Shown here in pieces: positions 12,001 through 63,000 of a stretch of 64,000 nt of DNA. Positions within the stretch are counted from its first letter, which is position 1. Each line of letters begins with the position of its first letter. The DNA is from Candidatus Omnitrophota bacterium (GTDB lineage: Bacteria > Omnitrophota > Gorgyraeia > Gygaellales > Profunditerraquicolaceae), in the NCBI GenBank assembly GCA_041651035.1, contig JBAZKC010000001.1, positions 579,244 through 643,243 of the forward strand, written 5' to 3'. The position numbers were made by a program, and so were the translations under genes. Below the pieces are notes generated by a model. It saw only the letters and a list, made by a program, of their open reading frames with translations. It made no database searches and had not been told where the DNA came from.

Positions 12001-15000
12001 CACAAGAGGTATGGACTTCTGATGTCCAGAGGGCAAGAAGAGGCGCTTTAACCGCCTACGGCAAGATGATGATAATTCCTCAGATGGTTTCTGTAATGAC
12101 ACCTCCAGGAGAGGATTCAGAGGCTTTTATGTACTTGCAGAGGTCCAATCCTCAATATGAAAGCACCCAGATTGACTGGTTTATGTTTGAATGGGGCCGC
12201 GCTGCGCTATTTGCTGAATCTATCGTAGGGACAGAAACGCGCTACGGATATAACTGCACACGCATGTTCTCTGACAGGGGCTCATTTGAAGTGTTGCTTA
12301 ATAAAGACCTGGGGTATGATAAGAAGTTATCCCATCTCTTTTTATTCTTCCATTATTTCGGGGCCATATTTTCACTTGCCCTTTTAATGACCCTGCCGTT
12401 TATATCTCCTTTCAGCGCTTTTGCTTTTCTCAAGCCGGCTATCGCATTTGCGGCTTCAGCCAATCTGTTAATGGAGGCAATAAATCTCTGCGATTTCATC
12501 AAGCATTTAAGGAAAACCGGATCTTTCTTGATGGCTATGGCATTTACGGTAAAGGATATTATTATTGCATTGCCGGTTTTTGTTTTCTTGATACCATACT
12601 TCTTTAGAGCTGTTTGGCTTGCTAGTAACGAAATTTTCAGTTTTATCCTGACCCGGAAAGATGCACTTTTACAGAAAGTCAGCAACCAGCAGCGTTGGGA
12701 TGATAAAGATTCTGGTATAATGCTTTTCCGTTTGGGAGGTAAAAAGAGATGGCCATTAAACGGTTTATTGGGGCTAATCGGGATAGCCGGCTGGTTAGTC
12801 AATTTGTTTACAGTAACTTCTTATGGCTCGGTAATTATTATTCTCTATTTGGCCGCGGGTATTGTCTTCTTATCAGGAATGTATGTTTGCGGTGCGTTTG
12901 TGGATAGAAAAGGCAATCTTAAGGGCTATAGCTTTTGGGCCATGTTTAAGATGCTGCCGTATTCGATTAGTAAAACAATATCATATTTTCCTGTGGTAGG
13001 TAAATATTGGGATTGGGTGGTTTATAAAATATGTAAACCTTTAGAGAAGGGGCTCATTAATATTCCAACTTCGTGGGGATTGAAAGCACGATTAAAGTTA
13101 TCCAGGCCATTAAAACCTTTTAGTTTAAAATCTCCCACGTTGGTAGGGCGTCTTAGTAAAAATATTGTTACTGGTGGGGTGTTCATTTTCCGAGCCATAA
13201 TCCGCACTATAACAGTTCTAATGGCTTTTGTTATTGGCTTTGGTCCAGCTTTATTAAGCGGGGTACTTAGTAACCCTATTAGCCTAACATTGCTTTTTAT
13301 ATCTCTGCCTTTGATGGTATTTGTCGGTTCGTTCTTTAATGGTTTATTCACTCCTTATTGGATATTGCGCGGAATCTTAAAAAATAATGAATGCCATACT
13401 AAAAAGCAACCCGCTGATTCATCTTCTTCGTCCTTGTCTTCTCCATCTGTGTCTTCTTCACCCTTGGTCTCTCCGCAGCTGGTTAAAAATTTAAGGTATA
13501 ATTCAAGCAACCCGGTGTCTAGTATTAATCCTGATAGAACTTATTTTGATCTAGCCGAAATGTATGCTAGCTCTAGCGCTATTATGAGTCCTTTAGGACG
13601 ATTAGAAAAGCTTTCCATAGAGGTCAATGTTCTTGATATACCAATTGAAAGAACGTCGTTTGGGAATCTGTTGATTAACAACGGATATTCCAAATCGTTT
13701 ATTCAATATTTACTTACTAATCCAGAAGTTAGAATATTTGAAGCTAATCGGGGAAAGTATGTTTCATATAGTATCTTTAAGTTGATAGAGAATTCTACTT
13801 TAAAGGAAGCGTTAGAAATAATAAATAAATATTTCCTACCTCTTAATGAAAATAATCCAGATATTTCTGCTTCGGTAGATTTTGAAGAATTTCTAGATTT
13901 ACAAAATAAATATAAATCCGGAGAACTTAATCTCAATCACAGTAAAGTATCGCAATTTGATGTCATTCTACCTAAAAAGCAAGTGAGGAGTTTTGAAGAT
14001 GCGATTTTACAAGAAAGGATGTTTTTGTTTAATCTTGATAACGAAGGAAAAAAGATGGTTGCAAAGGGAGAGATTGCTGAGATAGTCTCTGCTGGTGGCA
14101 CTTCTGGGAGATTCTTTGGTTATAAGGTAAATATACCTGAAAGTAGAAAAATAAAAGCCATTGTTCCTATCTGGAAAATTATGGGACGGCTATTAAGTAA
14201 TGTTGAAGTTCGTATGAGATATTTGAAATATCTAGTGGAAAATACCGGCAAAGGGCATATACCTTTGGTGATTATGGGCAGTGGTAATAATATTGAGTAT
14301 TTAAAAGAAATAACACGAGGCTATAAAGTTTATCCAGAGGGAGATTTATATTTTTATTCTCAGGGTGAAATAGCAAGACTAAATCCGGCTGAGAAAGATA
14401 TCAGATATTCGGGCGCTCCAATTGATGATGGGAAATATAATCTTCCCCATGGGGAAGACGCAGATGCAAATGTGTCACAATGGTTATCCGATAATGGTGA
14501 GATAGGAGGTATTTTCAGAAATGATGACGGGACATATACTGGAAAGCCAATTGGTCCTTTTGATATTTTTGCTAGATTGGTTTTAAGTAGAAGGCTACTT
14601 GAGTTAAGAGAAAAAGGAGTCAGGGTTATCCATCAAGCAAATGGTGATAATGTAGGGGCTATTTTAGATCCAGCCAAGGCAGCCTATTTGATGAAGAGAC
14701 GCGATATTGACATGTTGGTGCTTTTTGTAAGGAAAAATATGATTTATAGTTTAAGCAAAGATAGCCAAGTTTTTAATGAGCAGATAAGGACTAATGATCA
14801 TTTTGCTTTCCAAAATGGCGTAAAGGATTTCATAGTTATTACCAGAGATGGAAGAGTTATTAGCCATAATTTGCCAAAAGGAGTCAAGCCTATATTAAAA
14901 GAAAGTAAACTATCTCTTACATTTAAAGAGGAAGCTTTAATATCTAATATTGAAGGGCAAGGTGAAAAAGGCGGAGTTCTTGTTCATGCTCTAGGAGAAG

Positions 15001-18000
15001 ATAAGGATATCATCCTAGAACAGCCGTTTTCTGGAGGACAGTACCTCAGCTGCGGGCAACTTTATATCAAAGTAGAATCACTTTTGAAAATGTTCGGCTT
15101 AAATCTAAAAGAATATAGAGATATTTCTCAAGATTCTTTAATGAAAAAAATAAAGGCAGTAGCAACTAATATGAGAACCTATGTTGAGATAAAGCCAATC
15201 AATGTAGGGGATAATAATACAATAAAAATGAGGCCAGCAATACAATTTGTCAGGACTATAGAAAACTTTATAAGTTTAAAAGGAATAAATACCGAGTACC
15301 TTTTAATCAATAGGGATGCTTCTAATGATAGAGAAGGCTATTGTCCAGTTAAGAGCATAGGAGATATTGAGTGGAATATCCCAATCGTCTATTCTATATT
15401 CAGACTCGATAATAATGGGAATTTACAAAAGAATTCTAAATTATTTTCCGAAACCGTTGCCTCATCTCCAACCATAGCCTTGAAAGCTAATGGGTTAAAT
15501 AAAATATCCCCTGAAGATTTAGCAAAGTCATTAGGGTTCAAGGTTGTTGACCGAGAAGCCGGATGGATAACATATCGTGAAGATTATCGATATAGTTTAA
15601 ATGATGTCGAACTCGTAATAGTCCCGCATGGTTTAACCGATGCAGATGTGGAGGGAGTACTTCAGGTTTCTAATAAAAATGATGATCCTAGATATGGATT
15701 AAATGAGACAGGCTATAGGCAAGTAGCTCAAGGAGCTAAAATACTTTGGAATAAATATTCAGCAAGAATTAGAGCAGGGCAACTTGTTTGTTATTATAGC
15801 GGCGTAAATAGAACCGTCCAGACTGCACAAGCATTTTTAGATTATGCTAAAAAGATATGCCCGGAGATTGTTATGGATATTAGGATCTCCGATGCGATTA
15901 GAATGAATTTTGGTGCTTGGGAAGGCACCAAAAAATCTCAGATTGATACAATTCTTTCTGAAGAGGAGAAGATTAGAGCTAAGAAATTTATCGGAAAGAA
16001 TGCGTTTATTAGTTCCCGGGACGGTCAGAGTTTTATTGAATATCTATATGTCGTGAAAGAATTCCTAAATAGTCTACAAGAAAAGCATAGAGGCAAGACG
16101 GTTATCATATTCGGTCATGGAATTTTTATCAAGGCAGTTAGAATTATTTTGCGCACAGGTGGTATCATCTCTGATCCATATTTGGATTGGGATAAAGGCG
16201 CACGAAAGTCTTACAAGTTGGGGATGCCGCTAGTTATGAATGATTCTCAGTTGGAAAATGAAGGTAAGATAGAGATTGCTAATATTTGGCGTAAGAATAT
16301 GGCTTACAGGCATTCATCGGAAGAATTAGCTGCTCATGCTGCAAAAATTCGTTTAGAAAGTTTGAAAATATGGCGTAGGCTTAAAGGTCCGCTTGCAGGA
16401 TCTATGTCGGTGGTTGAGCTTTATACTGTTCTCTTTTTAGATTATCTCAACCCTGAGAATTTCCTTTTCAACCATCCTAAGAGGCTAAGGATTATTCCAA
16501 AAGGTTCTGCAGCAAGCACTTTATATGCCGCAGCGGCGCTTACTGGTTTTCTTGATCCGGAGAGAATAAGCAATATTGATAAGGCTGATTTGGAAATTGT
16601 ACCCACTAGATTTACCCTTAGCGATGCTAGTCTTTATAAATTGGGTACTAGTCTAGAACAAGGAATCGGGCTCGCCTTATCTGGCAAAATTAAGAAAATC
16701 GATTTTCCTGTCTTAATTTTCTTATCGGATGGTTCTATGCAGTTAGGTATCGACCATCAAGCAAAATTTGCTGCTCACATGAAACTTAATAATCTCGCTG
16801 TGGTTATTGATATTAACTATTTACAGAATGCGTATAAAATTGAAGATGTCGACCCGACATTGATATATGATAGTTCCGGTTGTTTAGAAAGATTGAGCGC
16901 TTTATGGGAAGCTTATGGTTGGGAAGTCTTGGAAATTGATGGGCATGATTTTGAGCAAATTCATAGTGCTTATGAAAGAATTGGCCAAGGCGAGAAACCA
17001 TTAGTTATTCTAGCAAGGACTATAAAAGGACGGGGAATCCCACAAATAGAAGGCAGTTTGGGTTATAGCCACAAATTCCCTTCCGAAGATGATTATCAAG
17101 ATGCCCTAAACGCATTACAAGATGAGGTTAACAAATATCAGAAATTGGGATATAGCATAGAATATCCTGAATGGGTGTCGGCGCAAAAAATGGTATTTGA
17201 TAATCAAAAACTTACATTGCCCGAGCTTAAGCTTTTTGGAGACCATGGTTTGATACCCATCGCAGATCCAGTATTATTACAGAAAACCCATTTAGAGAAT
17301 ATCCTTAGAATTTGGTTAGAAGAATCTATCTTGTTGAATCCTAATAAAATATTTGTTTTGAATACAGACAATCCATCTCCCTTTGACCTTACGACGCCCA
17401 TAATGTCTCCGGATAATCATTCGTTTCTTATTTTTACCGGTATTAACGAGAGATTTGCCTTAAATCTAGCAGGTGGTATGTTCATTGAAGGATTGTTTCC
17501 TATCTATATCGGACCAGCAGCCCATATGCTTATTAATGCAGAGGACTGGAAAATGTTAGGCTTGGGTAAGCAAAATATCTTAGTTATTTCTAGATCAGCA
17601 GGATCGGATTTGAGTCATTGGGGACCAGGGCATTTAATTTATGAAGATATAGAGTTTTTTAAGAATCCGTGGTGTCAAGTCTTACAACCAGCCCATGCGT
17701 GGGATTTACTATTGATTCTTGAAAATTACTATAGGAAATACTCTAATGGGAAACCCACATATTTAAGGATGCAGGAGATTTATCCTTTTCAAATCCGGGC
17801 AGATTTGTTTGATACTGAGCAGAAACGTAGAAAAATATACGAGGATGGTTTTTATTTAGCTGACTCATTTGAAGAAAATGCTCCATCAGAGCCAGTTGTA
17901 TTTATTGTTAGCGGTAAAACTGTTTTAGAAGCCCTAAAGGCAGGTCAAACTTTGCGTTCTATGGGGATATCTTTTAGAATATTCAATATCATAAATCTGT

Positions 18001-21000
18001 CTTCAATTAACAAAGAAGAGTTACAAAAATTAACAGCTGACGCTAATAGAATTGTTACTGCGATAGATGCTTTACCTCAGAGTCTTTCTTCGTTGATTTA
18101 TGATACTTTACCAGATAAAAGGTCATGCGTTTTGGCATTTGGTATACGGGATGGCGGAGGGTATGAAGCCGAGGCGGATATTTTTTATAGAAATAAAATC
18201 AATGCCCAGAGTTTTGTTGCTTTATGTTTAAATTCCAGTAGCCCAGTCTCTATAAATATTTTTACCACCAAAGAACTTAAAGGGGAACTAGAGATATTAA
18301 AGGGGAGAAAGATTCATATTGATTATCAGAAAGATGTAGATGGGCCTCAGACTGCTGCTAGATTGGTTAAGGATGTTTTCCGACAAGTAGGAGTTATTCT
18401 TAAGGAGGCCAGCAAAGAATCTGAGGTTTGTGTTTGGATTGGCGAGAGTGACGAGTATATGCAATTTTATTTTATCATCTCCGATTGTTTAAATCCAGAA
18501 AAAAGCGTCAGATTTGAATGTGGGCCGCGCGAATTAACAGCATCAATCATGACAGCAGTTTGCCTGTTCTTCAAAGAAGAAGCAGCCACCCATTCTACAA
18601 ATATTATGCAGCTTATTCTTCAACTCGATAGTACCAATAGGGAGCAAAGACAGCAGGCCGGGGACCTTCTTGTAGGACAGTCACAAGAAGCTATTAGGGA
18701 AATCTTGCGTTCTGTAAATGAAATTAATAGGGTAATAATGACAGCCGCGATTTCCGGCGATTTACAAAAGGCGATAGATGGCATGTTATTGTTAGGGCGT
18801 AGGATTGAGATATTAGGCCGCATAGGCAGCGTTGAAGGCATAGAAGCCATCTTAGACGCGTTGGCAGACTCGGCCGTTGCTTTTACAAACACAGGCTTAA
18901 AAGAGGCTGAAGCGCTTAATAAAATTGCCCTTAACGCAATCGTAAATATAGGCAAGCCCGCGGTTCCATACTTAAAAAAGCATATAAATGATTCACGCCG
19001 GCCCGTACGGCAAACAATCTCGTTAGCGCTTTCGCGCATAGAATCTGCCTCTTCACCAATTAGAGGCCTAAGTTATACCGAAACCCTGCTTGACGGCATT
19101 CGGATAATTAAAATAATAATTAATCCAAGCCATTTCAGGCTCAGGGCGTCAATTCAGGGAAATCTTAGTAACAAGATGCACTGGGATGGCCTTGAAGGTA
19201 TTGTTTATGCGGGTAAAGAACCGCTTTTAGACATCAGCAGTCGTATTTGGAGTATTGATAATCATAAATCCAAGATGGCCCCCGGATTTATTGGAGTTGT
19301 TCCTTTCGGCAATATATTATGGCATCCATATTATGTTCTTTATCAAGATGGACGGGCTTATCACAGATACGGAGAAGAAACGAATATCGCGGCGCGCATG
19401 CGTTATCCCACTTTTGTGTTTTATAAAGACGGGACTTTTAAGTTTGAAGATACTGATTTTAACACCATAGATAGGGGTAATGTTCAAACAATTATAGGTA
19501 CTAACTTGGCAATAATACGCGATAGCAGAGAGGCAGCCTTGCGGGATATCCATTTTGAAGACATACGGCATGTTTTTCGTTTCCCTATAATAAAGGTGAA
19601 GTCAGACTCTAAGAGCGCTTACGGCGGCGATATTGCTATCGGCCGCAAAATTATTTATGGAGATGAAGAGGCAAGAATGAAGGCTTACGCCGGCAGGCCT
19701 CTTGAAATTGAACTCAGCCAGTATGGCATTGATTATTTACAGGCTAAAAAAGCTATAGAGTTTGCCAGTTACCGGATGGTGGAAGACAGGAATAAAGTTT
19801 TTGCGCGCGGCGACGCATATTTAGATGCCAGACAGGGCATAGTTAATATTATATTCCAATATTCGCCATACCCGCAGTTTATTATGACTCGGGATGATGA
19901 TTCTAATTTAGTATTTTACGCATTTGGCGGAAAATCAGGGCAGGAAGGCTTAACATTAGGCAGAATCCAAGATTATCTTATTACTGAAGGAGCCAAAGAT
20001 GCGCTGGTGCTTTGTAACGGAAGCGATGTGTTTGTTGAGCTAAATGGCGCTACTATAATGCCAAGCTGGAACGGGAGGGATCGTTTTACTTCGTTGCTGT
20101 TTGTTTATCCTGAAGGAGTAAATAATTCTTTACCTGTTAATAATAAGAAAGTTCCGGTAGGTAGGTTAAAAGTTAAAACCAGTTCTCCTCTCGGCGCCCT
20201 TATATGTACTGAAGGAATTCAGCGGATACTGGCAAGTTCGCCAATAATAATGATACAAGATAATAATTTCCAGCAAGTCTTAAATCAGATAATCGGCTCT
20301 TCATCCCATCCTTCAAACGCACCGCCTGTAATAAGTATCAGCAGTTCTCCCCTCATCCACCGCATCGCTGTTCTCACCGGAGGCGGCCCAGCCTCAGGGC
20401 ATAACGAGGTAATCTACTCCGTGGTCAAGCAAGCCTCAGAGTACGGCATTGACGTAATCGGCATACCTCAAGGATGGCTGGGCTTAGTTGACGAATCACT
20501 GTTAAAAGAGCATAAGGTGCTTACCTTAAGCGACGTAGAGCCTCACCGCTATGAAGGAGGGACTATCCTTGGCACCAGCCGCACTAATCCTTATCTCAGC
20601 AAAAAAGACCCCAAATACAATATAGAGAACTACAACAGCAAAGAAGCGGCCCTAAAGGCATTCCAGGATGATGAACTCAAAGCCAGCCAGCTCTTGCTTA
20701 ATAACCTGCACAAGTTACACATAGATGCCTTGGTTACATGTGGCGGAGACGACACCAACTCCGTATCCTATATGCTCTTTAATCATACCGGCTTCCCGAT
20801 CATCGGTATGCCTAAGACCATGGATAATGACATAGCTTTCCCTGAACCAGACGCAGACACCTACGGTTTTGACAGCTTCGTGAAAGCGGCAATTCCCATG
20901 GTGCAGGCAGGCATAATTGATGCCCAATCCACCAACCGTCTCTTACTGGTAGAAGTCTTTGGCCGTAACGCCGGTTTTGTGGCTATGGCCATAGGGGCAG

Positions 21001-24000
21001 CGGTAGGAGCTACCCGCACCTTGATTCCTGAAGAAGGTAAACTTGATATAGCCAACATTGCCCAGCAGATAGCCGCTTACCATAAAGAAAACAACTATTC
21101 TGTGGTTATCCTCTCTGAAGGTATCAAGGTCATCCGCGACTTTGCCGACAATAACCGTATCCTGGAAGCAGCTTTTAGCAATGATCCTTTAGCCAGGGCT
21201 GCCTATGAGATGGCGGCAAAGTCCGCACCTGACCAATTCGGCCATCCCAAGCTGCAGAATGCAGACATCATCATGGCCGCAGCCTTAAAGGCAGCCTTCA
21301 AAGAACACAAAGAAAGAATAGATATCAGCCGTTCAGGCAAGTTAGACTACCTTATCCGCTCCGCTCCCACCTCAGAGAAAGACCTCAACATGTGCCGCCT
21401 CCTGGGTGAATCCGCTGTAGAAATGCTCTTAGAAGGAGAAAAAGGAGCCATTGTCTACTACCACCAGGGCCAAGCTAAGACCTTAGCGCTTACTCCTAAA
21501 TTAGGCGGCAGGACAGTTGACATAGAATCAGCCCATAGAGAAGAATACCTTAAGGCTAATCAGGCGTTTAAGATAATAACCAGCTCCCCACTTGGCTCCC
21601 TTGTCCGTACTGAAACAAGACAGTCAAGTTCTCCCTTTTCAAAAACCCTGCTCACTTTCTCTTTAACAGCCCTACTGTTTATATTTTCCTTCTTCCCCAC
21701 CTCCGCCTTTGCCCACTACTTCAAGGACACCCCCCAGGGTAGGGTAGCGGTAGTGGAAGAATGGTCCTCAAAGGATCCCCAGGTAAACACCTTAGGCGGC
21801 ATCGGCAAGGATATACTGGAAGCAAGAGGCGAAGAAGCCACCCTGGAAGCTCTTTACGGCAAAGACGGCAACAGTGGCATAGTAAGAGAGCTTAAGGATG
21901 TTAATAATCTTCCCACTGACTTAGTTTCCCCTGGCCAAGAAATCAAAGTGCCAGCAAAAGATGTCCCTGTAGCAAAAGAACAGCCAGCCCCTTCCCCTAA
22001 AGAAGAGATTAACGAGTCAGAGCGACAAGTTAAATCTCAAGATAAACAAGACAAGAAAGAAGCAAAAGAAGTGGCAGGCAAGCATAGAAGTTATCTTCTC
22101 TGGGCCTTGTTTGGCGGCGCTGTTATTTGCTTAGGTTCAGCATTCCTTCTGATATTGGGTAAGTTCAAGTCTAAGAAAAAAGTAACGCCGCCAGCAGAGA
22201 AAGAAAGTGGAAAGCTTTATACTCCAACTCCTACTGCAGACTGGTCCTCCAAGCTCGGCCTTCAGGAATCCGACCGCATCCATATGACCGGCCTGCAGCG
22301 TAAGCAGCGTAAACTACAGTCTCTGACCCCAGATGAGCAGTCAAAACAGCAGTTGGAGATCGGTGCAAACTTTCTGCCCTCCGCGCTCTTAACAGACCAG
22401 CAGCGCAAAGAAAAGCTCGGTGCCGAAGAATTTACCGTCATTGAAGAAGATACAGAAAATGCCTCTTTTGCCAAAGACAACGTAGCAGTTAGCTGCCATC
22501 CCATGGATGGAGGCTTAGGCACTGGCGTTGTCCGGGAAGACTACCTTGAGATTGATTTAGGGCGCCCCAAAGATGATCCTAAGACTAATCGGGCAAAGCT
22601 AGGGGCCAAGGCCACAGACCTTTTTATTGACTTTATCGCAAAAGGAAAAGACGCACAAGGTAATCCTGAAGATGTCCCGGTAAAAGTCTCTATTGCCGAA
22701 ATCAAGTTCCTGCGTGTCATAAAGGATGCCCCGTTATTTAGCGAAGTAGTTTTCCAGCCGCTGGTAAATGACGACTCCGCGCCTTCCTACCATAAACTTT
22801 TAGACAGTGTTTACCTGGAAGATGTCATTGATAATACCGTCAGCGAAAAGAGGGCCTACAGGCAGGTCCTGGCAGAAAAGGGCATTAAGCTTGCTAAGGG
22901 CGACAATGATGAGGTGATGCTTTATCAGAAGGACTTACCTATTATAGATATCGAGACCGGGGAATTGACCGATAAGTTTACCGCACCCGGCGGCCATGGC
23001 CAGTGGGGGGTAAGGCTCTTATATGAGGCCTTAGGCTTCAGGCAGCCTGAAGGTGATAAGAAAAGCTATATCCGGGCCTTCTACAACGGCGACGGCATTG
23101 CCAACTTCCCGCCTGCCTCTGTCTTAGGCTGGATGGCCAGAAATAAGGTTCCCATCATTATGATCTCTACCACCAAGGCAGGGTTAGATAAGAAAGGCGG
23201 TCAGATTGGTATTCAGAGACTGCCTGACGGCAGCTTCCGTATACAGATGCTTGAGTTAGCCCAGGCCAAGAAGCCCGGCAAAGATCATGAAGAGCTTTTC
23301 TACTCTATCGGCCTGGAAGGAAATCCCAATATCCCGGGCAAAGATATCCTGGGTAAGGATCCCGAAAAAGACTATACCTACACCAACCAGCCAGGGGCTC
23401 AGTATTTTAACACCAATATCGCCTTGATTAACTACAGCGTGCTTGCTCCTATACTCCAGGAGCTAGCCAAAGAAGAAAACGTAGAGTTTGAAGGAGAAAC
23501 CTTAAGCGGCAGAGAGCTCATTGAGCGCATCATTTCACCTGATTTGATTGAAAACGTCAAGGACAAGAAAGACGGCCGCAAATACACCCAGTTAGAAGGG
23601 GCTATCGGCTCAAGCCTACTTAATCTGAATGCCTTCCTGACCAGCCGCGGTAAGCCGATCCTTAGGGTGGTAAATGTACCTACCGATCTAAGGAGTGAGG
23701 TCTTTACCCCGGTAAAGAATGCCTTTGATTTCATCTTCCAGAACCTTTCTGATTACTATGTGGTAGACCAGGAAAACTGGACTCTACGCGACAGAAGCAA
23801 GGGCCAGGTGCCCCCCTTGGTGGACCTTAAAGAAGATAAATTCTACGCCAATGTCCATAACTGCATCAATGCCTTCGGCAAACTCGCGCTTATTAGCTTA
23901 GAGCATTTGAGCATTGAAGGCAGGGTGCAGCTAAAAGATGCTACCTTAAAGGGTGAAGTTAAGATAATCAGCAAATACCCAGAGGTATTTGACTTGAATT

Positions 24001-54000: not shown

Positions 54001-57000
54001 CTTCCTGGGCAACAAATCTTGCCGATATATTGTGGTATTCAGGACTGTGCATTACCGCTTTATCTTTAGCCGTATCTTTTATTACATTCATATTAAAATA
54101 TACAATAGAGAAGGTTACTCCGGTAGATGTTACTGCTGTTGGTTCTAGTAGAGAGGGATCTAAAAAAGGCGCTTCTCCGGCTGGCCCTGTTTCCTCCAGC
54201 CCGCTGGGCCGCTCTCTCAGAGACACATTCGGCACGGTGGTGAGAAATCTATCCGAGAATTCCTCCAGCTTGGTCCATTTAAAAGACATTGCCACAAAAG
54301 GATTAATTCGTGCAGGTCCGGCACGGATACTCAAGAATGTAATTGCCTTAGCGGCATTAGTAATTATCGGGCTGTTAACTCTATTCGCTGCTCCAACCTT
54401 AGTTAATAATGCCTCGGCAGTTGAATATAAAGATCAGGCTGAAGTCAGAGAAGTATCTCCTTCCCAGATAGAAATCCCCATACGTATTATCTACTCTAAT
54501 CACAGAACAGAAGCAGACTTTAACACATTGGTTCCTGCTTTGGACGAGGCGTTTAAGGCTGCCAAAGATAAGAACCAGAAAATCCTGTTGTTCCTGGAGG
54601 AGTGTGTTTTTCCAAGCGAGTCAGCAAGAGAGGACTTCAAAAAGATATGCCCTGGCTGGGATATTGATAAAGTTATTAATGATCCTGTAGATCGGGAGCA
54701 CTTTGAAGAAGCTTACTTATCGTATTTAAAAGATGAACAAGAATACGTCCGAACACTGTGCAGTTCCACAGATTGGCTCAAGGATTATAAAGAAAATACA
54801 GACTTTGCCACAGCTCTATTACGTTATATTACAGAGAAAATAAACAGCGGAGAATATGAAATTCAAATTTATCTTGAAACTCCGCCATTTGAATATATTT
54901 TGCATGTTCTACAATATTCAACATTAGAGTACTCTGCTGATGTCAAGCTTAGGGATGAGGATTTATTTAAGGATATAAAACAAATATTAGTAACTTCTTC
55001 CGACAACAATAGTGTCATTATTATCAGAGGGGAGCTTCATACCTATCTGGGTAAATTGTTTGAGGAAAACGGATATAAAGTTAATTATTCAAACGGAGAA
55101 GGTTACGAAAATCTTGTTAAATGTTTTGAAATTATTGGAAAAATGCAGAAAGATCATGATATATCTGCGCCATCTGTCGCCTATACTCAAGAGATTAAGA
55201 CCTGCGAAGGCCATGATGCGGATTATTGGATGATGCAACTTACAGATGAGCTGCCGTTTACTCGTAAAGATGCTGCCAGAGCCTTAGGTGAAATAGGCGA
55301 TCCAAGGGCAGTGCCGGCCTTGATAGAAGTTCTTAAAAAAGACAATAACTGTTTTATAGTATCCGCAGCTATCAAAGCCCTTGGTAAAATAGGCGACCCG
55401 AGCGCAGTTCCAGTATTGATTGAAGCCTTGGAAAACAGTGATAGCGGTATAAGGAAATCCGCTGCCAGGGCCCTTAAAAAACTTGGTTGGGAACCTCAAA
55501 ATCAAGAAGAACAAATAAAATACTTTTTTTCCATAAGGGATTGGGATGCTTTGGTTAAAATTGGTAAACCAGCAATAGAATTATTAGAAAACAAGGGCTT
55601 GAGCGACGGTGACTTTAAAATAAGCATTCCAGCTCTTGAGACTCTTAGAAAAATCGACCCTGATTGGCGGCCGACAGGAGATTTTTCTTTGGCTCCCCAA
55701 GAGAAAGACGCAAGCGATTATATTTTTATAGTAGTCGTGGGAGCTGGCGTATTTATAATCATTATAGGTTTCTCTGTGCTGGCCTGGATGCGCCTATCAG
55801 AGTTGAAAGCTGCTGAAAAAGAAAAGCGCGGAGAACAACAAGAAACCAGCTTTATCGGCGGCACTACCTTTATTAATATTGAAGAGCGTAAACGTGCTTC
55901 ATCTCCGCTAAGCAGTAAACAGCAGTACCAGCAGTGGACCGATGAACTTGAAGAGGCAAAATCAAGCTGGAAACTATTTGAGATTGTCAGAAATATCGGA
56001 GAAAGCCTTCTTGATAACTCCGAGCTTCTGGAGCCGGTTATTAGTGTCTTTCTTTGGGCAAAGTTAAATATGGCTCAAGCACAGTCAAATATGATTGGGG
56101 AGAGGCTTGCCGGATACATTAAGCAACTGTTTTATCATAAATCCGATTTTAAGCCAACTTTCAAGCAACTAAGTTTTCTTATTAGTATCTTTTCTCAATT
56201 AAATTTAAGCGATGATACCCGAAAAAGCATTGGCGAAGCCATTGAGCAGGTTTTTATCAATAATCCCGATATTTTAACCCCGGTTTTCGTTTGGGTGAGC
56301 TGGAAAAACTCGGCTAGGGTGCGGAATGGGGCTGCTTATTTAATTAAACAGGCTATTAACAGAAATCCTGAGAGCCTTATGCCTGTATTTATTTTAGGGC
56401 TAAGTGATCCCGATGTCAGGAAAAGTCCATACCTTCGAGATATTGAGAAAAGAATACTAAGGGAAGGCAAGGGCAGAGGCGCCTCATCTCCGGTAATCTG
56501 TGTTTGGCAGCAACTAAGAGGCCGGATTAAGGCTCTTGAACAGGCAAGCTCGAACTGGGAACAGTATCAGATTGCTATAGAGATTGAGGATGACCTTATT
56601 GATAATGTCAATCTTCTAACCCCAATTCTTAATGTTATTCTCCGGACAAAATCGAATATTATCCAAGAATGGCTTGTTGAGGTTATTGAACAAACGTTTC
56701 GCGACAAAGCCGAATTTAAAGTGGCCTCCAAGCAGCTAGGGATCATTATTAATATATTTATCAAAGCAGGTTCAGATGATATTCAGGAGAGGCTTGCCGG
56801 TACTATTGAACGGATTCTTTGCAACAATCCAGACCTTAGGTTAACCCAAAAGCAGTTTGATAATCTGGTTGCCGTATTTGTTCAGACAGGTTCAGAGAGC
56901 ATACGACAAAAACTTGCCGGTGTTTTTGACCAGGCGCTTAGCAATGAGCCTGAAATTATACCAATTATCGTTCAAGATAGGCTTATTGGTGTTTTTGCAG

Positions 57001-60000
57001 ATAAGCCCTGCAATAATACTGATCTTAAACCGACCTTTGAGCAGCTGGATATCTTCGTTACTACCCTTATCCAAACACAGTCACACAATATCCGGCACAG
57101 GATTGGTTGTATTATTAAGCATATACTTCGCGGCGATCCCGATATTTTAATCCCGGGTCTTGCCGCTTTTAAACAGGCATATCCATATAAGTGTGTTGAT
57201 GCCCAAGAGGAATTTATTATTGCTGTTGGAAGAGCTATTAGCAGCACCCCTAAACTTTTAAATCTCGCGCTTGTTGCTATTGTCGAGACAGACTCGGATA
57301 AGGTTAGATATTGGCTTGCCCGTGCCATTAAAAATGCCCATAATTATAATACTGATTTTAAACTAACTTATGAACAGGTAAATATTCTTCGTATGGCTCT
57401 TGACCGGGCAGGCTCGGATATAGCCAGAGTTGAAATTGCCGATACTATTGGAAAAGCCTTTAGCAGAAACCCCGGGTTTAAGCCAAATCTAGAACTGTTA
57501 GATACTTTTGTTACTGTTATTAGCCGTGTAGATTTAAATGCTGCCGAGAGGGTTACGTATGCTTTTTTAAGGCTCCTGGTTAATAAGCCGGTTCTTTTAA
57601 CTCCGCTTATTGCCGTCCATACCCAGACAGGCTTAGCAGATAATGTTTGGAAGAATCTTACTTATTTTCTTATGCATGTTCTTATCTGTGACCCAAATCT
57701 CTTAGGTCCAATCCATATTATTCTTTCTCGGCCTGGCTCGGATGAGGCCTTGTATTGGTTTTCCGGAATTATTGAACAGGCTATTCTTAATGAGCCCGAT
57801 ATCTTAATCTCCATCCTTATTATGCTTACTTGGGCAGATTCGTATAGTTTACGGGAGGGGTTTACTTACGCCATTGAACAGGCACTTGGCAGAAGCTCCC
57901 AAAGGCTTATGCCCGTATTTATATCGGGGTTGGATGATCCTGAAGTCAGGATAGGCCAAGACACCAAAGAAAGGATATTTACGTATTTAGCATCTAAAGG
58001 TATCTATCCTCAAGCAGAAAAAGGCGAAGCAATGAACACTTCGTCTCCGCTGGAGCGTTCCAACTCACCTGTAACAATCCTCTCTAATTTACGGACTTTA
58101 TGGATCCGCCTTCAAATTGAATGGCATGGATCAAGGCTATGGTATAGCTCAAGACTAAAGAGAAGCTACAATCCTTATATCTGCATACGCGCAGTCAGAG
58201 CTTTAGACAAACTTGGAGATCCGGGAGCAGTTGAATATCTGGGTATGGCTTTAATTAGTCCAAATGGGGAGGTCTGTATAGGCGCAGCCGAAGCATTAGG
58301 TAATATTGGCGCCCCAGAAGCAATCCCGTTCTTGATCGATGCTTTATTACGTGATGATTCAGATTCTGATGTCTGCGAAGCGTTAGCCAAAGCCTTACTA
58401 AAAATCAACCTTACCTCTAAAAAAGCTGTTATAAGAGCTTTTAAAAAGTTAAGGCAGAAGGATATTGAAGTTTTAATAATAATTCTTACCCGAAACGGAG
58501 TAATGCCGCTAGCAGAGTTATTCTTAAATTCCGGCCGCCGCGAATTAGAAGAAGTGGCAAGAGAGTGGGCACCAAAACACAGATACGTTATTAAAGAAGA
58601 TCCGGTTACCAGACATTGGTCATTGAAACCTTCGGCCTCAAGCCCGCTAACCAGTGATTCAAAGGGAGTAGAAGCCCTTGGAAAAGAAATCAGTCCTATA
58701 ATTTCCAGCTCGCCGGTGGGTTATGGCCCTATAAGGAGAGAGCGGATAGAAAGCTATGGGGAATTTATCCGTTCAATGGGGCTCACAGCGGAAGATATCC
58801 AGAGTCTTCCTCCTAATTTAAGGCAGGTATTCTATAAGCTGAAAGATATAATTGCGGAGGCCCGCGCTATTATTTATTCTATAGAAGATATAGAAGATAT
58901 TAAAGTTGAAATTGAGCAAGAAAAAGGCATGCCCAAGAATCTCACAGATAAAATAAATGAAATTAGCAAGAGATTGAACTTGGGTGGAGTTAGATATCAT
59001 ACAAAGAAAGAGATAAAAGCTAAATTAGCCGAAGTAAGTAATGCTTTACCCGGCCAAACTTCAATTATTAAGGAGTTGTTGAGGTTGATTAGCCTCTTAG
59101 GGGAGAGATTGAGCAAATTAGAGCGGCAAATAGTTTTATTTAACCTGCGTACTGCTCAGGGCTTGGATAAGCACAGAGCCGATATTTCAAAAGGGCTCCC
59201 AGTTTCTTATTTTTCTCCCCAAGAAACCGCCGTTATATCTGCTAACCGAGAATTTCGTCTATGGAAGGAACAGGATAGAGAGTCACAATTACCCGAAAGG
59301 ATAATCAAATATCTTCAGGTATGTTTGAGTTTTCGTGTCAGAGCCCCTCCTGCGTTGAGAGATATAAATGCTATCCTTGACGATCCCCAAGTAACAAAAC
59401 TGATTGATATGCTTCTTGGTTTTGACCCCGAGTTTGATGCGCTGTCCATCCTCGAGAGATCCGCAACAGTTATTAAGATTGCCAAAGAGAACAAAATCAG
59501 CGACGATGAAAGATATATCTTTCATCTTATCAGCTTTACTCCTAGAGAATATTACTTTAGGCAAAATGTCCCTCTTCAGGTAAGAGAATATATTGCTGGG
59601 CGTATTGAGAAGGATTATGGGATAGCATTACTTAATCCTGAGACTAGGCTGGAGATTGAATTTTCCGGGGATGGAACAGAAGAAGGAGTATTTTTAAAAG
59701 CATGCTCTCTTGATGAAATAACAACTAGTGAAAGAGGAGTACCATTTTATTCGATACCCAATAAGAGGCAATTGGCAAAATGGTTTAAAGATACCTTTGG
59801 GGAATTAAAGTCAATCAAAGATAATAAAGAATACCGGGAAGCTCTAGCAATTTATAATAATTATCGTAGACATAGGATCCTTCAAGGAAGAATATATGAA
59901 CTCAAAAAACAGATTTATCGAATTACGTATAAAACCTTATCTGGAAAGACTGAATCCGTAAATTTCATTTTCTATAAAGATACTAAAACCGGTGTATTTT

Positions 60001-63000
60001 GTTCCAGCAGTTCCAGTAATTCTGCTTCTTCGCCAATAGCCTCGCCGCGCATAGCACAGCTGTTCCCAGGGTCAATCAAAGACGGCCACCAAATAGTTTT
60101 GACCAGAGAACAATTTGTGCGATGGCTGTTATGTGAGCCAAGCGGTATTTCTTATAAACTGAAGGCAGAATGGGGTAAAGCCATAGAAGAGTTTTCGTTA
60201 TTTTTTGCTGATGATTATACCCGTGACCACTGCGCCAGGGTTTTTGCTTATGCTTGGCAGATAATTGAAGAACTCCGCCGTCAGGTAAATAGAAAGAGAG
60301 AAAACGGAATAATAAGTCCTGGCAGAATAAATATAGACGTTAATTCATTGTTAATTGCTGCCCTTCTCCATGATATAGGAAAATTACAAATCCCGACAGA
60401 CATACTATGCAAGCCAAGCCGTTTGAGTGACGAAGAATTCAAGATTATACAGAGGCATCCCATCATTGGTTCGCAGATGCTTAGTTTCCTTGGGGAGATG
60501 GTTGCCAGAATGGTAAAAGAGCACCATGAAAATTATGATGGCAGCGGTTACTATGGCTTAAGATATGAAGAAAAATGCCTGGGTTCTTCAATTATCAGGG
60601 TCGCGGATACACTTGATGCCATGTTAAATGAAAGGCCCTATCAAAAATCCCATCTTTTAAGAGATGCCATCAGTGAAATTATAAATTACAGCGGCACCCG
60701 GTTTAATCCTGCGGTAGTAAAAATGCTCTCCCACCTTTACGAAACAGGTAGGCTTTTTCATTTAGTAATAACAGATGGAAACGCCAAAACGCTCTCCGTG
60801 GCTGGCCAAGACAAAAATCCCGCAGTAAGCGGCCGGGTTCACTTTGAACGGTTGATTGCTGAACTTGAAGGTGCGCAATCAGCTTGGAATAAGCAGTTAA
60901 CTATTATAGATATCGAGCAAGTCCTTATTAATAACCCTAATATATTGGTTTTGGCTCTTATCGCCTTTGGTTATGCAAAGGCATATAGTATACAGGATGG
61001 GCTTATTAATTCCATAGAGCAGTCTATTAAGCGTGCCCCAGGCAGGTTAATACCCGCATTCATCTCAGGATTAAATAATCCCTATCTTAGAAGAAAACAA
61101 GAAATCAAGGCAAGGATTCTTAATTACCTGTTAGCTAGCTCTATCTACCCCCATCGTCATTTACCCGGTTGCAATCAGCCTGAATGGGCAGCTATTCTCG
61201 CCAGTATACCGGAAGACCTATCCATGCCGTTGCTTACAGCGGATAATAATAAAGCCTATTTAGGCATCCTGCTTGCTGAAGACGATAAGGATGCCTTTAA
61301 GAAAGCCGCGTTTATAAAACTACAGGCCTACAAGAATCATATCAGAAAAACACTAGGTAAGGAATTAGGAGAAAGCCTGCCAGGGCAAGGGTCTTTATAC
61401 AGCGGCAGGTTTAGTTTGCCTTGGAAAGACTTTGTCATAGATATGAATGACCGTGCTCAAGAAATAAGCACCTCATCTCCGGTAACGATACCGCTTAATA
61501 CCGGATCAAGCCCGTTGATAGTAGCGCCAATAGAGCATCATCGGCAGGCGGCGGCCTTAATCCAGCAATACGCGCCAAAAAGAAAAGTTCCGGTGTTAAT
61601 ATTTGATTATCATTATGACGGAGGTTGGTTTTTGCATGAGGCGATAGACCCTAATCCAAATGATTTTAACTGGATAGACTTCATAAAAAGCAGGGTTGGG
61701 CAAATATATCTCTTCAGGCCATCCTGGGCAAAAGCAGAAGATTTACGCGGTTATCTAGATAGCGATGTCAAAGTGTTATATGATCCAGAAGGATTGGACT
61801 TACGCGGCCAGGAAGTAATTATTACCGTTGAGTATGATTATTTCTCGGTGAAGCTGCTTATTGATGGCACCCCCAATATTAAGAACAGGCCGGTTCCCGC
61901 CGAAATAAAAAGCAGGGCAGATCAGATAATGAGGGTCGTGAAGGAGAAAGAGCTTCGGCCATACCTATTTATTCCCTGCGAGGGGCTCGAGTATATTTAT
62001 AAGAAGGACGCTTCGGAAATTACCGAGAGCTTGTTCAGTGCTTTTTACCGAAATTTTCCTACTGCCTCTTCGCCTTGCGGCTCCAACTCGCCGGTATTTT
62101 CTGGCGTCGCTTCTTTAACCGTCGGCCAGTTGCTTAAACCTCAGGGATGTATTGCCGCGAAAGATAATATGCGTATACCGGTTTCCATGGTGCGTTTACC
62201 TATAGTGGAAGTCGGCGCATTAGATAGAGCAACAAAAGAGAAATTAGCCGTAAGTCTCCAGCGTTGGCTTGATTACAAAGGCAGGTATCCCGCGGTACAC
62301 ATTCCAGACGTATGCTTATTCATTGCTTTTCTAAAAGGAGAGCAGAAAGAAGGTGAAGAGATATTCCGGGCACTCTTGGAAAAAGAATCGCAGTTGTATT
62401 GCGCAATATCTTATCGTAATTCCCAATTGGAGACAGAAGGCTGGGTCCACATTAATATAAGTGACCGCAGCCGGATGAGTACCACAGTAATTAGGCCGGC
62501 ACTTATGGAGATAGCTCCATGGAACAGAGGTGATACTGCCGCAACTCCTTATTTTAGCGGAGTAGGCACGCAATTAAGAACTTTTGGTATCAGACTATTA
62601 CTTGAAGGTATGGAAGGCCATCGTGATCCATTTATCTACGGATGTATTCAAACCCTGGGTTTCCGCAGCGAAAAGGAAGATGTGTTTTCAGAGGGTGTTG
62701 ATCAGGGATATATTGAGGAATACTTTGGGGGCGCAAAATATACCGAACAAGAAGGCATAGATCAATATGGTTGTCTGGAAGAATGCCTTTGCCGTTTGCC
62801 GGTGACTCCGCTCAGGACTGATGATGAGCGAAGTCAAGCCAGCAGCAGCTCGCCGGTGACAGATTTTACCCGCAGTAAAGATTTTAAGACTGCACGTGTA
62901 TTAGATAGGATTAAGAATGAATTGGTTGATCTTGATGTCAGGCTCCATAGCAGCGAAACAGGCAATTTTGAGGCCCTGCGGCAGGAGTTGCGGACGTGGC

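Follow-up and report, generated by a model that had tools for sequence, protein, structure and literature searches.

The giant genes of Omnitrophota rank among the oddest traits of bacterial genomes and reach 147,000 codons, and the central question that they raise is whether each of them yields one protein or many cut pieces. This question is addressed here for a stretch of 64,000 nucleotides (nt) from a Candidatus Omnitrophota bacterium (assembly GCA_041651035.1, contig JBAZKC010000001.1, positions 579,244 to 643,243), which is called the window throughout. One reading frame on the + strand crosses the window from end to end, and a five-residue peptide motif, Ser-Ser-Pro followed by Leu, Val or Ile and preceded by a small residue, recurs along it at the seams between complete proteins that are fused in frame. 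We infer that this motif is read by another macromolecule as a short linear motif. With a probability of about 40%, it would be a recognition site in exposed linkers, most likely for an endopeptidase with an aliphatic P1 residue, and the gene would then be a bacterial polyprotein.

A giant reading frame and its recurrent motif

A frame scan from nt 3 onward reveals that the + strand is open across all 21,332 codons without a stop. The frame runs through both window ends, so the actual gene exceeds 64 kb. The longest run in any other frame of the 64-kb window is ≤205 codons and the window holds no closed open reading frame (ORF) of ≥300 amino acids (aa); its GC content is 42%. Domains were called with Pfam and NCBIfam scans of the whole window, and topology was derived from hydropathy alone (Kyte-Doolittle scan). 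The chain begins with a Peptidase_M23 domain (aa 13-100, nt 39-302), which is followed by ~4,400 aa without annotation that include a block of ~10 hydrophobic helices (aa 2744-4449). From aa 4479 on, modules of UDPGP-like, His_Phos_1, transketolase, phosphofructokinase (PFK), second UDPGP-like, S-adenosylmethionine methyltransferase and glycogen synthase GT5 (GlgA) type occur, as well as an alpha-glucan-phosphorylase/GT5-like module (module X), PGM/PMM I-IV, a CheR-type methyltransferase, the branching enzyme GlgB, a fructose-bisphosphatase (FBPase) of glpX type, HEAT and TPR repeats, DUF218 and HD. Domain hits (21 in all) cover just 27% of this motif-bearing region (aa 4479-21332). The ORF exceeds 10,000 codons, PF08323, PF02878-80, PF08241, HEAT/TPR and HD are tiled along the chain, and 27 hydrophobic segments in the whole window provide multiple transmembrane (TM) anchoring, all of which are features of Omnitrophota giant proteins. 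The window is part of one giant Omnitrophota “multi-enzyme” gene in which ~40 complete proteins are fused in frame, some of them with their own signal- or anchor-like N-termini.

The motif is far more frequent than composition predicts. SSP occurs 54 times in the window protein against a shuffle mean of 4.1 (maximum 12), SSP[LVI] 45 times against 1.0 (maximum 4) and [AS]SSP[LVI] 37 times against 0.15; shuffling within blocks of 200 or 50 aa gives the same outcome as global shuffling. A sequence-only reading of this DNA had put the number of SSP[LVI] copies at about 50, with about one expected by chance, and had proposed a count against shuffled controls, which indeed lies far above expectation. 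In an unbiased k-mer ranking, SSP leads the over-represented tripeptides, and the list of tetrapeptides is headed by SSSP, ASSP, SSPL and SSPV. Information is restricted to five positions, namely S/A/T (47/54), S, S, P and L/V/I (45/54), and no position beyond them is conserved. The residues keep a strict order, with a single SPS[LVI] and no PSS[LVI] against 45 copies of SSP[LVI]. The aliphatic residue lies in polar linkers, in which the motif flanks abound in S, P, R, Q and T and contain few aromatic or acidic residues.

Placement along the chain is equally uneven. The motif first appears at nt 13,437 (aa 4479), nt 62,847 marks its last copy, and the first 4,478 aa hold no copy where 14.3 would be expected at downstream density (P=6e-7). 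This agrees with the earlier claims that the motif is absent from the first 13 kb and that it first appears directly behind a TM block at 13.44 kb, where the junction LSSPSVSSSPL adjoins the last helix of the block. Peptidase_M23, which is of lysostaphin/LytM type, lies in the motif-free start and fits a cell-wall-attacking, extracytoplasmic N-terminal region. The 54 copies form 40 clusters. In 11 of these, the motifs come in twos or threes whose starts lie 6-50 aa from each other, with spacers of roughly 2-50 aa in between. Segments between motifs are 116-1,740 aa long and typically measure ~270 aa, which is near the size of an ordinary bacterial protein.

Seams of complete proteins in the window and its relatives

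None of the 40 motif clusters overlaps a Pfam or NCBIfam match, where 11.2 overlaps would be expected, and zero overlaps were obtained in 0/20,000 random placements (P<5e-5). PFK is the clearest case. Its profiles start at profile position 2-3, only 1-3 residues past SSPL(6781-6784), and end 11 aa before the next motif; in an alignment with the solved Bacillus PFK 4i4i_A, residue 2 (Lys2) corresponds to H6786, and Met1 corresponds to I6785, directly after SSPL. The GlgA profile ends 6 aa ahead of ASSPL. GlgB matches profile positions 5-618/619 with 842.6 bits (curated cutoff 741), and the match ends 9 aa ahead of SSSPM. It had been proposed that the motif brackets nearly every recognizable domain. 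The absence of overlaps and the profile ends close to motifs bear this out in large part, but unmarked boundaries exist: His_Phos_1 and transketolase share one segment, and PGM lies inside a segment of 1,740 aa. The four modules that had been quoted as examples (PFK, GlgA, a methyltransferase and “GlgP”) are all flanked as described, but the identity of “GlgP” is weak, with an alpha-glucan-phosphorylase/GT5-like match of 72 bits against a cutoff of 192.

Several modules begin as separate membrane or secreted proteins would. Hydrophobic segments start ≤45 aa after a motif in 7/14 of the strongest cases downstream of aa 4479, compared to 1.7 expected (P=0.0006). Several of them resemble Sec signal peptides with AXA sites, for example SKTLLTFSLTALLFIFSFFPTSAFA|HYF, and such segments would look like the N-terminus expected of a once-separate membrane or secreted protein. 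The arrangement shows that the giant proteins here were assembled from complete genes, own targeting signals included.

Three Sec-signal-like segments (nt 21639-21716, 30942-31034 and 51900-52010) look canonical, in that a hydrophobic core follows a positively charged n-region and leads to an AFA or SLA site, and they start ~25 aa or less past a motif; two of them share near-identical ...F[FL]PT[SP]AFA|HYFKD ends. If signal peptidase I cuts such segments, there would be a second, independent way to sever the chain. Downstream hydrophobic segments are often paired just upstream of an enzyme module (aa 7216-7388, 8632-8689 and 10317-10493) in the order signal-like helix, loop and second helix. 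Such pairs would stitch the chain through the membrane and bring each enzyme back to the same side.

A spacer element of ~55 aa carries a motif at each end, with the pattern SSP[LVF]G[AV]L...QQ[VIL]L..QIIG...SSSP[LM]. Its two window copies, A (nt 20181-20354) and B (nt 30732-30893), are 47% identical (E=5e-8), and a further copy is found in P0158, a 69%-identical relative. Shorter SSP[LV]GAL spacers occur at aa 7194, 9003, 12683 and 13662, and also in the metagenome contig L006 described below.

Relatives of the window protein are few and fragmentary. The nearest (45-69% identity) are fragments from metagenome-assembled genomes (MAGs) of Candidatus Omnitrophota/Omnitrophica, scans of genome and metagenome contigs gave loci at 40-52% identity only, and an exhaustive representative search gave ~10 relatives of the GlgA module, all of them fragments. 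L006 (Ga0172370_10000016), a 202-kb metagenome contig whose GlgA is 51% identical, has one open frame across the 21.6 kb examined, with 13 SSP against 1.0 expected and SSSP and SSPV as top tetrapeptides. L003, an Omnitrophota MAG locus of 52% identity, has 8 SSP against 1.0 expected. No motif lies inside a Pfam match in the L006 or L003 pieces.

The same seams can be followed through the fused relatives. GlgA-module ends carry SSP[LIV] in the window, L006, L003, P0008, P0007 and P0010, and SSSS[LI] or SSSL in P0002, P0003/L001, L002 and P0006; those of P0001, P0009 and P0011 carry no motif. For the UDPGP-like module, SSSP[MI] occurs in P0158 and P0156, and SSSS[I] or ASSSL in P0155 and P0157. 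Low-GC loci such as L001, L002 and L010 (0.32-0.34) have the SSSS form, and loci of 0.38-0.42 have SSP, which fits a first-position C-to-T change (CCN to TCN) that AT pressure may have driven. Both forms occur in P0006/L010. P0155, a 53%-identical UDPGP-like homologue with SSSSI seams, is labelled “Candidatus Aenigmatarchaeota archaeon”; it is probably a mis-binned Omnitrophota contig, or could represent a transfer.

Stand-alone orthologues lack the motif. P0005 is a 558-aa GlgA encoded by a separate gene between opposite-strand genes (L008), and its termini fall at the motif positions of the fused proteins, with no motif there. In L007, a GlgA gene begins at the same point and is preceded by non-coding DNA. 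Nor is the motif present in P0153 and P0154, two stand-alone proteins of UDPGP-like type that possess a Met of their own and a TM or signal sequence. As controls, 141 ordinary GlgA-family proteins contain 7 SS[SP][LIVM] against 6.2 expected, and eight ordinary ORFs adjoining the relatives contain none. Presence at fused seams across relatives, together with absence from stand-alone orthologues, indicates that the motif is specific to the fused state, old, and tolerant of a Pro-to-Ser change.

Module order varies and the seams persist. GlgA and module X are adjacent in the window and lie 2.6 thousand amino acids (kaa) apart in L006, where each is still bounded by SSPV. L006 contains three paralogues of the UDPGP-like module of window aa 7398-8052 (L006 aa 287-807, 880-1456 and 1599-2248); at least the first two of these have SSPV at their end or shortly behind it. 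In L003, two modules of Fucose_pyrophosphorylase type (aa 1531 and 2398, 867 aa apart) each follow an identical 30-aa junction, KKKAEERQNAKGSSPVTTSSPIPTLNNTQP. Judging by these sequences, module duplication is ongoing in the giant-protein family of the window, L006 and L003.

The features of the window are as follows, with coordinates in nt and all on the + strand.

3..63998, +, giant multi-enzyme membrane-protein ORF of Omnitrophota type (frame scan, Pfam content, nearest relatives)
3..13433, +, motif-free N-terminal region of 4,477 aa with Peptidase_M23, an unannotated stretch and ~10 hydrophobic helices (Pfam, hydropathy)
13434..13466, +, first junction LSSPSVSSSPL, a double motif right behind the last helix of the TM block (motif scan, hydropathy)
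15459..15473, +, junction ASSPT, ahead of the His_Phos_1 and transketolase segment
18234..18248, +, junction SSSPV, 53 aa past Transketolase_C
19047..19061, +, junction ASSPI
20178..20354, +, 58-aa junction with three motifs, TSSPLGAL...ASSPI...QQVLNQIIG...SSSPL, which abuts PFK; spacer copy A (E=5e-8 to copy B)
20355..21548, +, complete phosphofructokinase module, aa 6785-7182 (profile, 4i4i_A alignment)
21579..21638, +, junction TSSPLGSLVRTETRQSSSPF, 11 aa past the PFK end, then the Sec-signal-like segment at nt 21639-21716
24105..24158, +, junction ASSPL...SSSPI, which closes the UDPGP-like module (the paralogues of L006 terminate in SSPV in the same place)
24963..24977, +, junction SSSPI
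25797..25811, +, junction SSSPL, then a TM hairpin, then a methyltransferase
27006..27146, +, triple junction SSSPLGALLCTQLKQKGRSSPS...TTSSPV between methyltransferase and GlgA
27204..28775, +, glycogen synthase GlgA (GT5) module (profile; termini of stand-alone P0005 match the motif positions)
28791..28805, +, junction ASSPL between GlgA and the GT-B/phosphorylase-like module X
30729..30893, +, 55-aa junction ASSPVGAL...QQILTQIIG...SSSPL, spacer copy B, then the Sec-signal-like segment at nt 30942-31034
36111..36125, +, junction SSSPV
36927..36941, +, junction SSSPL
38046..38060, +, junction SSSPLGVLL
39057..39071, +, junction SSSPV with codons AGC TCG CCG GTA
39468..39482, +, ISSPQ, an atypical copy that may be due to chance
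39864..39878, +, junction SSSPV
40326..40340, +, junction ASSPI
40983..41099, +, triple junction ASSPLGAVV...ASSPV...PSSPY, 5 aa ahead of the CheR-type methyltransferase
41796..41810, +, junction ASSPV, behind the CheR-type module
43887..44018, +, double junction TSSPL...ASSPV
44706..44720, +, junction VSSPL, 54 aa ahead of GlgB
44883..46838, +, complete 1,4-alpha-glucan branching enzyme GlgB (profile)
46863..46877, +, junction SSSPM, 9 aa past the GlgB end and ahead of the segment that contains FBPase (glpX)
49269..49283, +, junction ASSPV, ahead of a methyltransferase
50067..50081, +, junction SSSPL between methyltransferase and HEAT repeats
50691..50705, +, junction SSSPV, behind HEAT repeats
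51483..51539, +, double junction SSSPI...SSSPI between DUF218 and HEAT
51885..51899, +, PSSPQ, with a signal-peptide-like segment 10 aa later (nt 51900-52010)
52539..52553, +, junction SSSPI, behind TPR repeats
53400..53414, +, junction ASSPL, then a TM segment
54192..54206, +, junction SSSPLG, then a TM segment
55896..55910, +, junction ASSPL
56481..56495, +, junction ASSPV
58038..58052, +, junction TSSPL, ahead of HEAT repeats
58635..58718, +, double junction ASSPL...SSSPV
60024..60038, +, junction ASSPI, ahead of the HD domain
61470..61517, +, double junction TSSPV...GSSPL
62064..62078, +, ASSPC, an atypical copy
62844..62858, +, last junction in the window, SSSPV

Within aa 12040-13940 (nt 36120-41822; 1,900 aa), 11 motif copies split the chain into modules of 128-369 aa and three spacers of 12-14 aa in the triple junction. 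At the sensitivity of a word-indexed search, this region has no homologue among 5.8 billion protein clusters, and its sole Pfam match is a sub-threshold CheR (aa 13705-13864, 24 bits against a cutoff of 27).

Selection on the peptide and the codon preference of the motif

Conservation had been described as lying at the nucleotide level and not just in the peptide, with about a dozen copies of one codon string and a conserved 11-nt core. That description was overstated. The exact 11-mer AGCTCGCCGGT occurs in 6 copies and AGCTCGCCG in 8, and the 54 motifs comprise 34 different 9-nt strings. Both Ser positions use the AGY and TCN codon families. At orthologous GlgA seams, the window has AGC TCG CCG twice, where L006 has TCT TCT CCG and AGC AGC CCG; low-GC relatives use TCT/TCC/TTA throughout. 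Neighbouring linker residues cannot be aligned between relatives, and the word itself is kept. Preservation of the peptide at orthologous seams, with diverged codons and flanks, argues for purifying selection on the peptide rather than for a recombination scar, and the level at which selection acts is primarily that of the peptide. Alignment of 30-nt flanks, which had been suggested as a way to find extended conserved or palindromic structure, gave an identity of 27.4% against 26-27% at random in-frame sites, with no conservation past the five codons. No inverted repeats occur at motif copies in a repeat analysis of the whole window, no Rfam matches were found in it, and there is no excess folding at motifs (minimum free energy -16.4 against -15.0 at random in-frame sites, with local GC higher at motifs).

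A codon preference confined to the motif is real, and this part of the nucleotide-level claim stands. Its consensus is TCC AGC TCG CCG G/CTN. The second Ser is TCG in 19/54 copies, compared to 8% in the background (P=1e-8) and 20% in other x-Ser-Pro (P=0.007); Pro is CCG in 27/54 against 26% (P=1e-4), and Ser at -1 is TCC in 13/23 against 17% (P=2e-5). AGCTCGCCG is over-represented, with 8 copies against ~0.3-0.7 expected (simulated P(>=8)=0/20,000). GC at third codon positions (GC3) is 0.59-0.70 in motif codons and 0.35-0.47 in flanks. The same tendency is found in the diverged L006 (P ~0.01 for each). A regional GC effect was rejected as the source of this bias since the GC3 rise is confined to motif codons, and shared descent is unlikely since in L006 the preference recurs at seams that are not orthologous, whereas orthologous seams have different codons. 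RNA structure does not account for the bias either. Possible explanations are avoidance of slippery C/T runs in so long a frame, a translational pause, or microhomology.

By far the most similar sequence pair in the window is a 300-nt direct repeat (nt 21664-21963 and 30979-31278) with 85% identity and a core of ~93%. Its copies start 26 and 86 nt past the nearest motifs and end inside a module, so that the repeat ends lie off the motif. It encodes a signal-peptide end and a LysM-like loop (sub-threshold LysM matches of 20.7 and 14.8 bits against a cutoff of 20.9), and this indicates that a membrane-anchor/peptidoglycan-binding cassette was recently duplicated within the gene or copied by gene conversion.

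These data bear on several explanations in which the peptide has no partner. The motif core had been proposed to be a scar or substrate of a DNA-level mechanism, that is, a microhomology or recombinase site through which cassettes are inserted or shuffled in frame, as in attC joints. Relatives do differ in module order, with the breakpoints falling on the motif (GlgA and module X; the UDPGP-like paralogues of L006), and the excess of AGCTCGCCG is as such a joint would leave it. Yet nothing outside the five codons is conserved, the motif copies have no inverted repeats or excess folding, Rfam matches are absent from the window, Ser codons are mixed, orthologous seams keep the peptide and change the codons, unlike a scar, and the sole recent intragenic duplication or conversion has its ends off the motif. 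Selection alone would also leave the surviving breakpoints in linkers. An attC-like element is therefore largely refuted, the breakpoints at motifs and the codon preference being what stands of that proposal, and a DNA-level joint in general is quite improbable. Translational punctuation is unlikely. Under this explanation, Ser-Ser-Pro codons (rare TCG, and Pro as a slow peptidyl acceptor) would slow the ribosome so that modules fold or insert in turn, and the codon preference would be the selected trait; its absence from flanks and the same trend in L006 are consistent with this, and doublets with a spacing of roughly 10-50 aa could adjust pauses to exit-tunnel length. Most copies, however, lack the preferred codons (34 9-mers), AGC and CCG are common codons in the window, low-GC relatives use TCT/TCC/TTA throughout, and a pause leaves the conserved aliphatic residue and the Ala/Ser/Thr at -1 unaccounted for. 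Ser-Ser-Pro is not known as a bacterial stalling motif. Internal translation starts, by which each module would be made separately from a giant mRNA, are very improbable: the residue after Pro is one of Leu/Val/Ile/Met, the amino acids of near-cognate start codons, and in PFK it stands one residue before the Met1 position, but Shine-Dalgarno sequences with an in-frame start near motifs number 8 against 6.9 +/- 2.4 at random sites, Met is depleted past the motif, and the commonest codons, GTA and CTA, are not start codons. An artefact of chance, of Ser-rich low-complexity sequence or of assembly is hardly conceivable; Ser is somewhat enriched in linkers, but the excess is 45-fold even against 50-aa block shuffles, residue order is strict, and the pattern recurs in independent assemblies from other samples.

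Possible readers of the motif and comparable systems

Among possible partners that recognize the peptide, an endopeptidase is the most likely. Such an enzyme would read P5-P3 as small, P2 as Pro (or Ser) and P1 as aliphatic, would cut after Leu, Val or Ile, and would free the fused enzymes as separate proteins. Four considerations favour cleavage. Information lies on the N-terminal side, stops at Leu/Val/Ile and is absent after it, which is the profile of S4-S1 subsites with an aliphatic P1; a cut after SSPL would give PFK its ancestral N-terminus; doublets around short spacers resemble polyprotein spacer peptides; and processing of giant proteins is already suspected on other grounds. The published suspicion concerns C39 and S8 domains in other giant proteins, for which no sites are known. 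The sequence-only reading had likewise suggested processing or modification sites that define the units of a polyprotein. The whole-protein units, the strict peptide, its selection at orthologous seams and its restriction to fusions fit such predicted cleavage or modification, and no cognate protease was found in the window. Ala-Ala-Pro-Val/Leu/Phe peptides are classical substrates of elastase- and subtilisin-type serine proteases.

Other recognition signals were compared with the motif and set aside. Signal peptidase I accepts the small residues at -3/-1, but Pro at +1 blocks the enzyme; the sulfatase motif S-x-P-x-R would need an Arg, the carrier-protein DSL motif an Asp and a helix bundle, and the lipobox a Cys, none of which is present; sortase and exosortase signals do not match.

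Several points weigh against cleavage. Besides Peptidase_M23, which is of peptidoglycan hydrolase type, no protease was found by Pfam in the 21 kaa of the window, beyond which the ORF continues, and no peptidase was found by Pfam in the L003 and L006 pieces (7 kaa each, 14 kaa). Some domain boundaries carry no motif. Any protease must tolerate the Pro-to-Ser change of the low-GC relatives or have co-evolved with it. Operons already give co-expression, which leaves fusion followed by cleavage without an obvious advantage, and tethering argues for an uncut chain. Paired hydrophobic segments, as predicted hairpins, would let an intact chain hold all its cytoplasmic enzymes on the same membrane side. 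An AlphaFold2 model of the methyltransferase-GlgA junction, built from a 4-sequence alignment, has a mean predicted local distance difference test score (pLDDT) of 45.5; its junction residues have pLDDT 21-26 and no secondary structure, and the model is too poor overall for showing linker exposure.

A tentative alternative, and one to be taken seriously, is that the chain stays intact and that the motif serves between modules without being cut. The protein would then be a membrane-sewn metabolon like beads on a string, in which the motif acts as a hinge or N-cap, as a bound motif (e.g., by HEAT/TPR) or as a site of Ser modification, with O-glycosylation or phosphorylation protecting or regulating the linkers. 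Motif and flank composition is typical of disordered Ser/Pro-rich linkers, paired TM segments keep the topology of an intact chain, and peptide-binding HEAT/TPR scaffolds and glycosyltransferases are abundant in the window protein and in its class. A hinge or a Ser-modification site would readily accommodate a P-to-S swap between lineages, the Pfam scans of the window found no protease, and tethering rationalizes fusion where cleavage does not. A plain flexible linker, however, needs neither a fixed order (45 copies against 0-1 for permutations) nor a conserved exposed aliphatic residue, nor seam conservation amid changing neighbours, and the modifying enzyme or binding partner is still only hypothetical. 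For the endopeptidase site, a wider version is somewhat doubtful: much of the central carbohydrate metabolism of a free-living or episymbiotic bacterium might be organized as a viral-style polyprotein, in which a membrane-threaded chain of >21,000 aa is cut at ~40 seams by a putative dedicated endopeptidase, and TCC-AGC-TCG-CCG might also be an in-frame microhomology through which cassettes are gained, lost and reordered.

The seams are the first concrete candidates for points at which giant proteins of this kind might be cut. In one protein, the motif supplies ~40 precisely placed, conserved sites that can be tested as cuts or hinges, and it permits a principled division of giant ORFs into their natural units before structures are predicted or annotations made. 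Its lineage variant SSSS[LI] can be used in co-evolution searches for the partner enzyme. Metaproteomes become a direct test via semi-specific peptides at SSP[LVI]; for the LiM giant protein, a published re-analysis yielded no more than 381 short peptides. Should cleavage prove true, no cellular polyprotein system of comparable scale would have a precedent. In an uncleaved chain, the motif would define hinges or docking points of a membrane-tethered metabolon.

Among known systems, the window protein resembles the Omnitrophota giant proteins of the “Archaeovorin” type (West-Roberts et al. 2023, bioRxiv 10.1101/2023.11.21.568195) and of the “multi-enzyme metabolic cluster” class (Nielsen & Lui 2026, bioRxiv 10.64898/2026.06.07.730766), with which it shares an ORF of >21 kaa, many TM helices, and starch-synthase GT5, PGM/PMM, FBPase, methyltransferase, HEAT, TPR and HD modules. 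Text searches of both papers found no mention of a recurrent junction motif, linker or mapped cleavage points; one of the two states that cleavage points are unknown and that their lack blocked a segmentation approach. The new element is the motif and not the giant protein, which belongs to a described class.

MARTX and large clostridial toxins, which carry a cysteine protease domain of peptidase family C80, are likewise large bacterial proteins of many modules. They are cut after a Leu that is preceded by small residues (GGSL|, EGSL|) in unstructured segments between effectors (PMC2900308). The window differs in that it has ~40 seams instead of 1-4, that its modules are metabolic enzymes and not toxin effectors, and that Pro/Ser precedes the aliphatic residue, and cleavage is proposed here from sequence; Pfam scans of the whole window found no peptidase C80 domain. 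Viral polyproteins (picornavirus 3C, retroviral protease, flavivirus internal signals) are alike in that one ORF serves many proteins, with a recurring consensus, double sites with spacers, and internal signal-like segments. The window, in contrast, comes from a cellular organism and no cognate protease was found in it; its consensus is not known to resemble any viral site. Ser/Thr/Pro linkers of cellulases, scaffoldins and the E2 component of 2-oxoacid dehydrogenases are comparable in their place between folded modules, their polar Ser/Pro composition and their probable disorder. Composition is what defines such linkers, and neither their length nor their residue order is constant, whereas the window word is fixed at five residues, has an obligatory aliphatic residue and is conserved across lineages. 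Integrons and exon shuffling also feature cassette-like units that are bounded by a recurring mark and whose order varies between relatives. attC sites are imperfect palindromes of 57-141 nt that are recognized as folded DNA; the motif here has ~14 biased nt, no palindrome or structure, and selection on the peptide. The nearest functional precedents are the autoprocessing of MARTX and large clostridial toxins and the viral polyproteins, and membership in both fails on the defining protease. The motif is best placed among the boundary or processing motifs of multi-module proteins, in a new setting and on an unprecedented scale.

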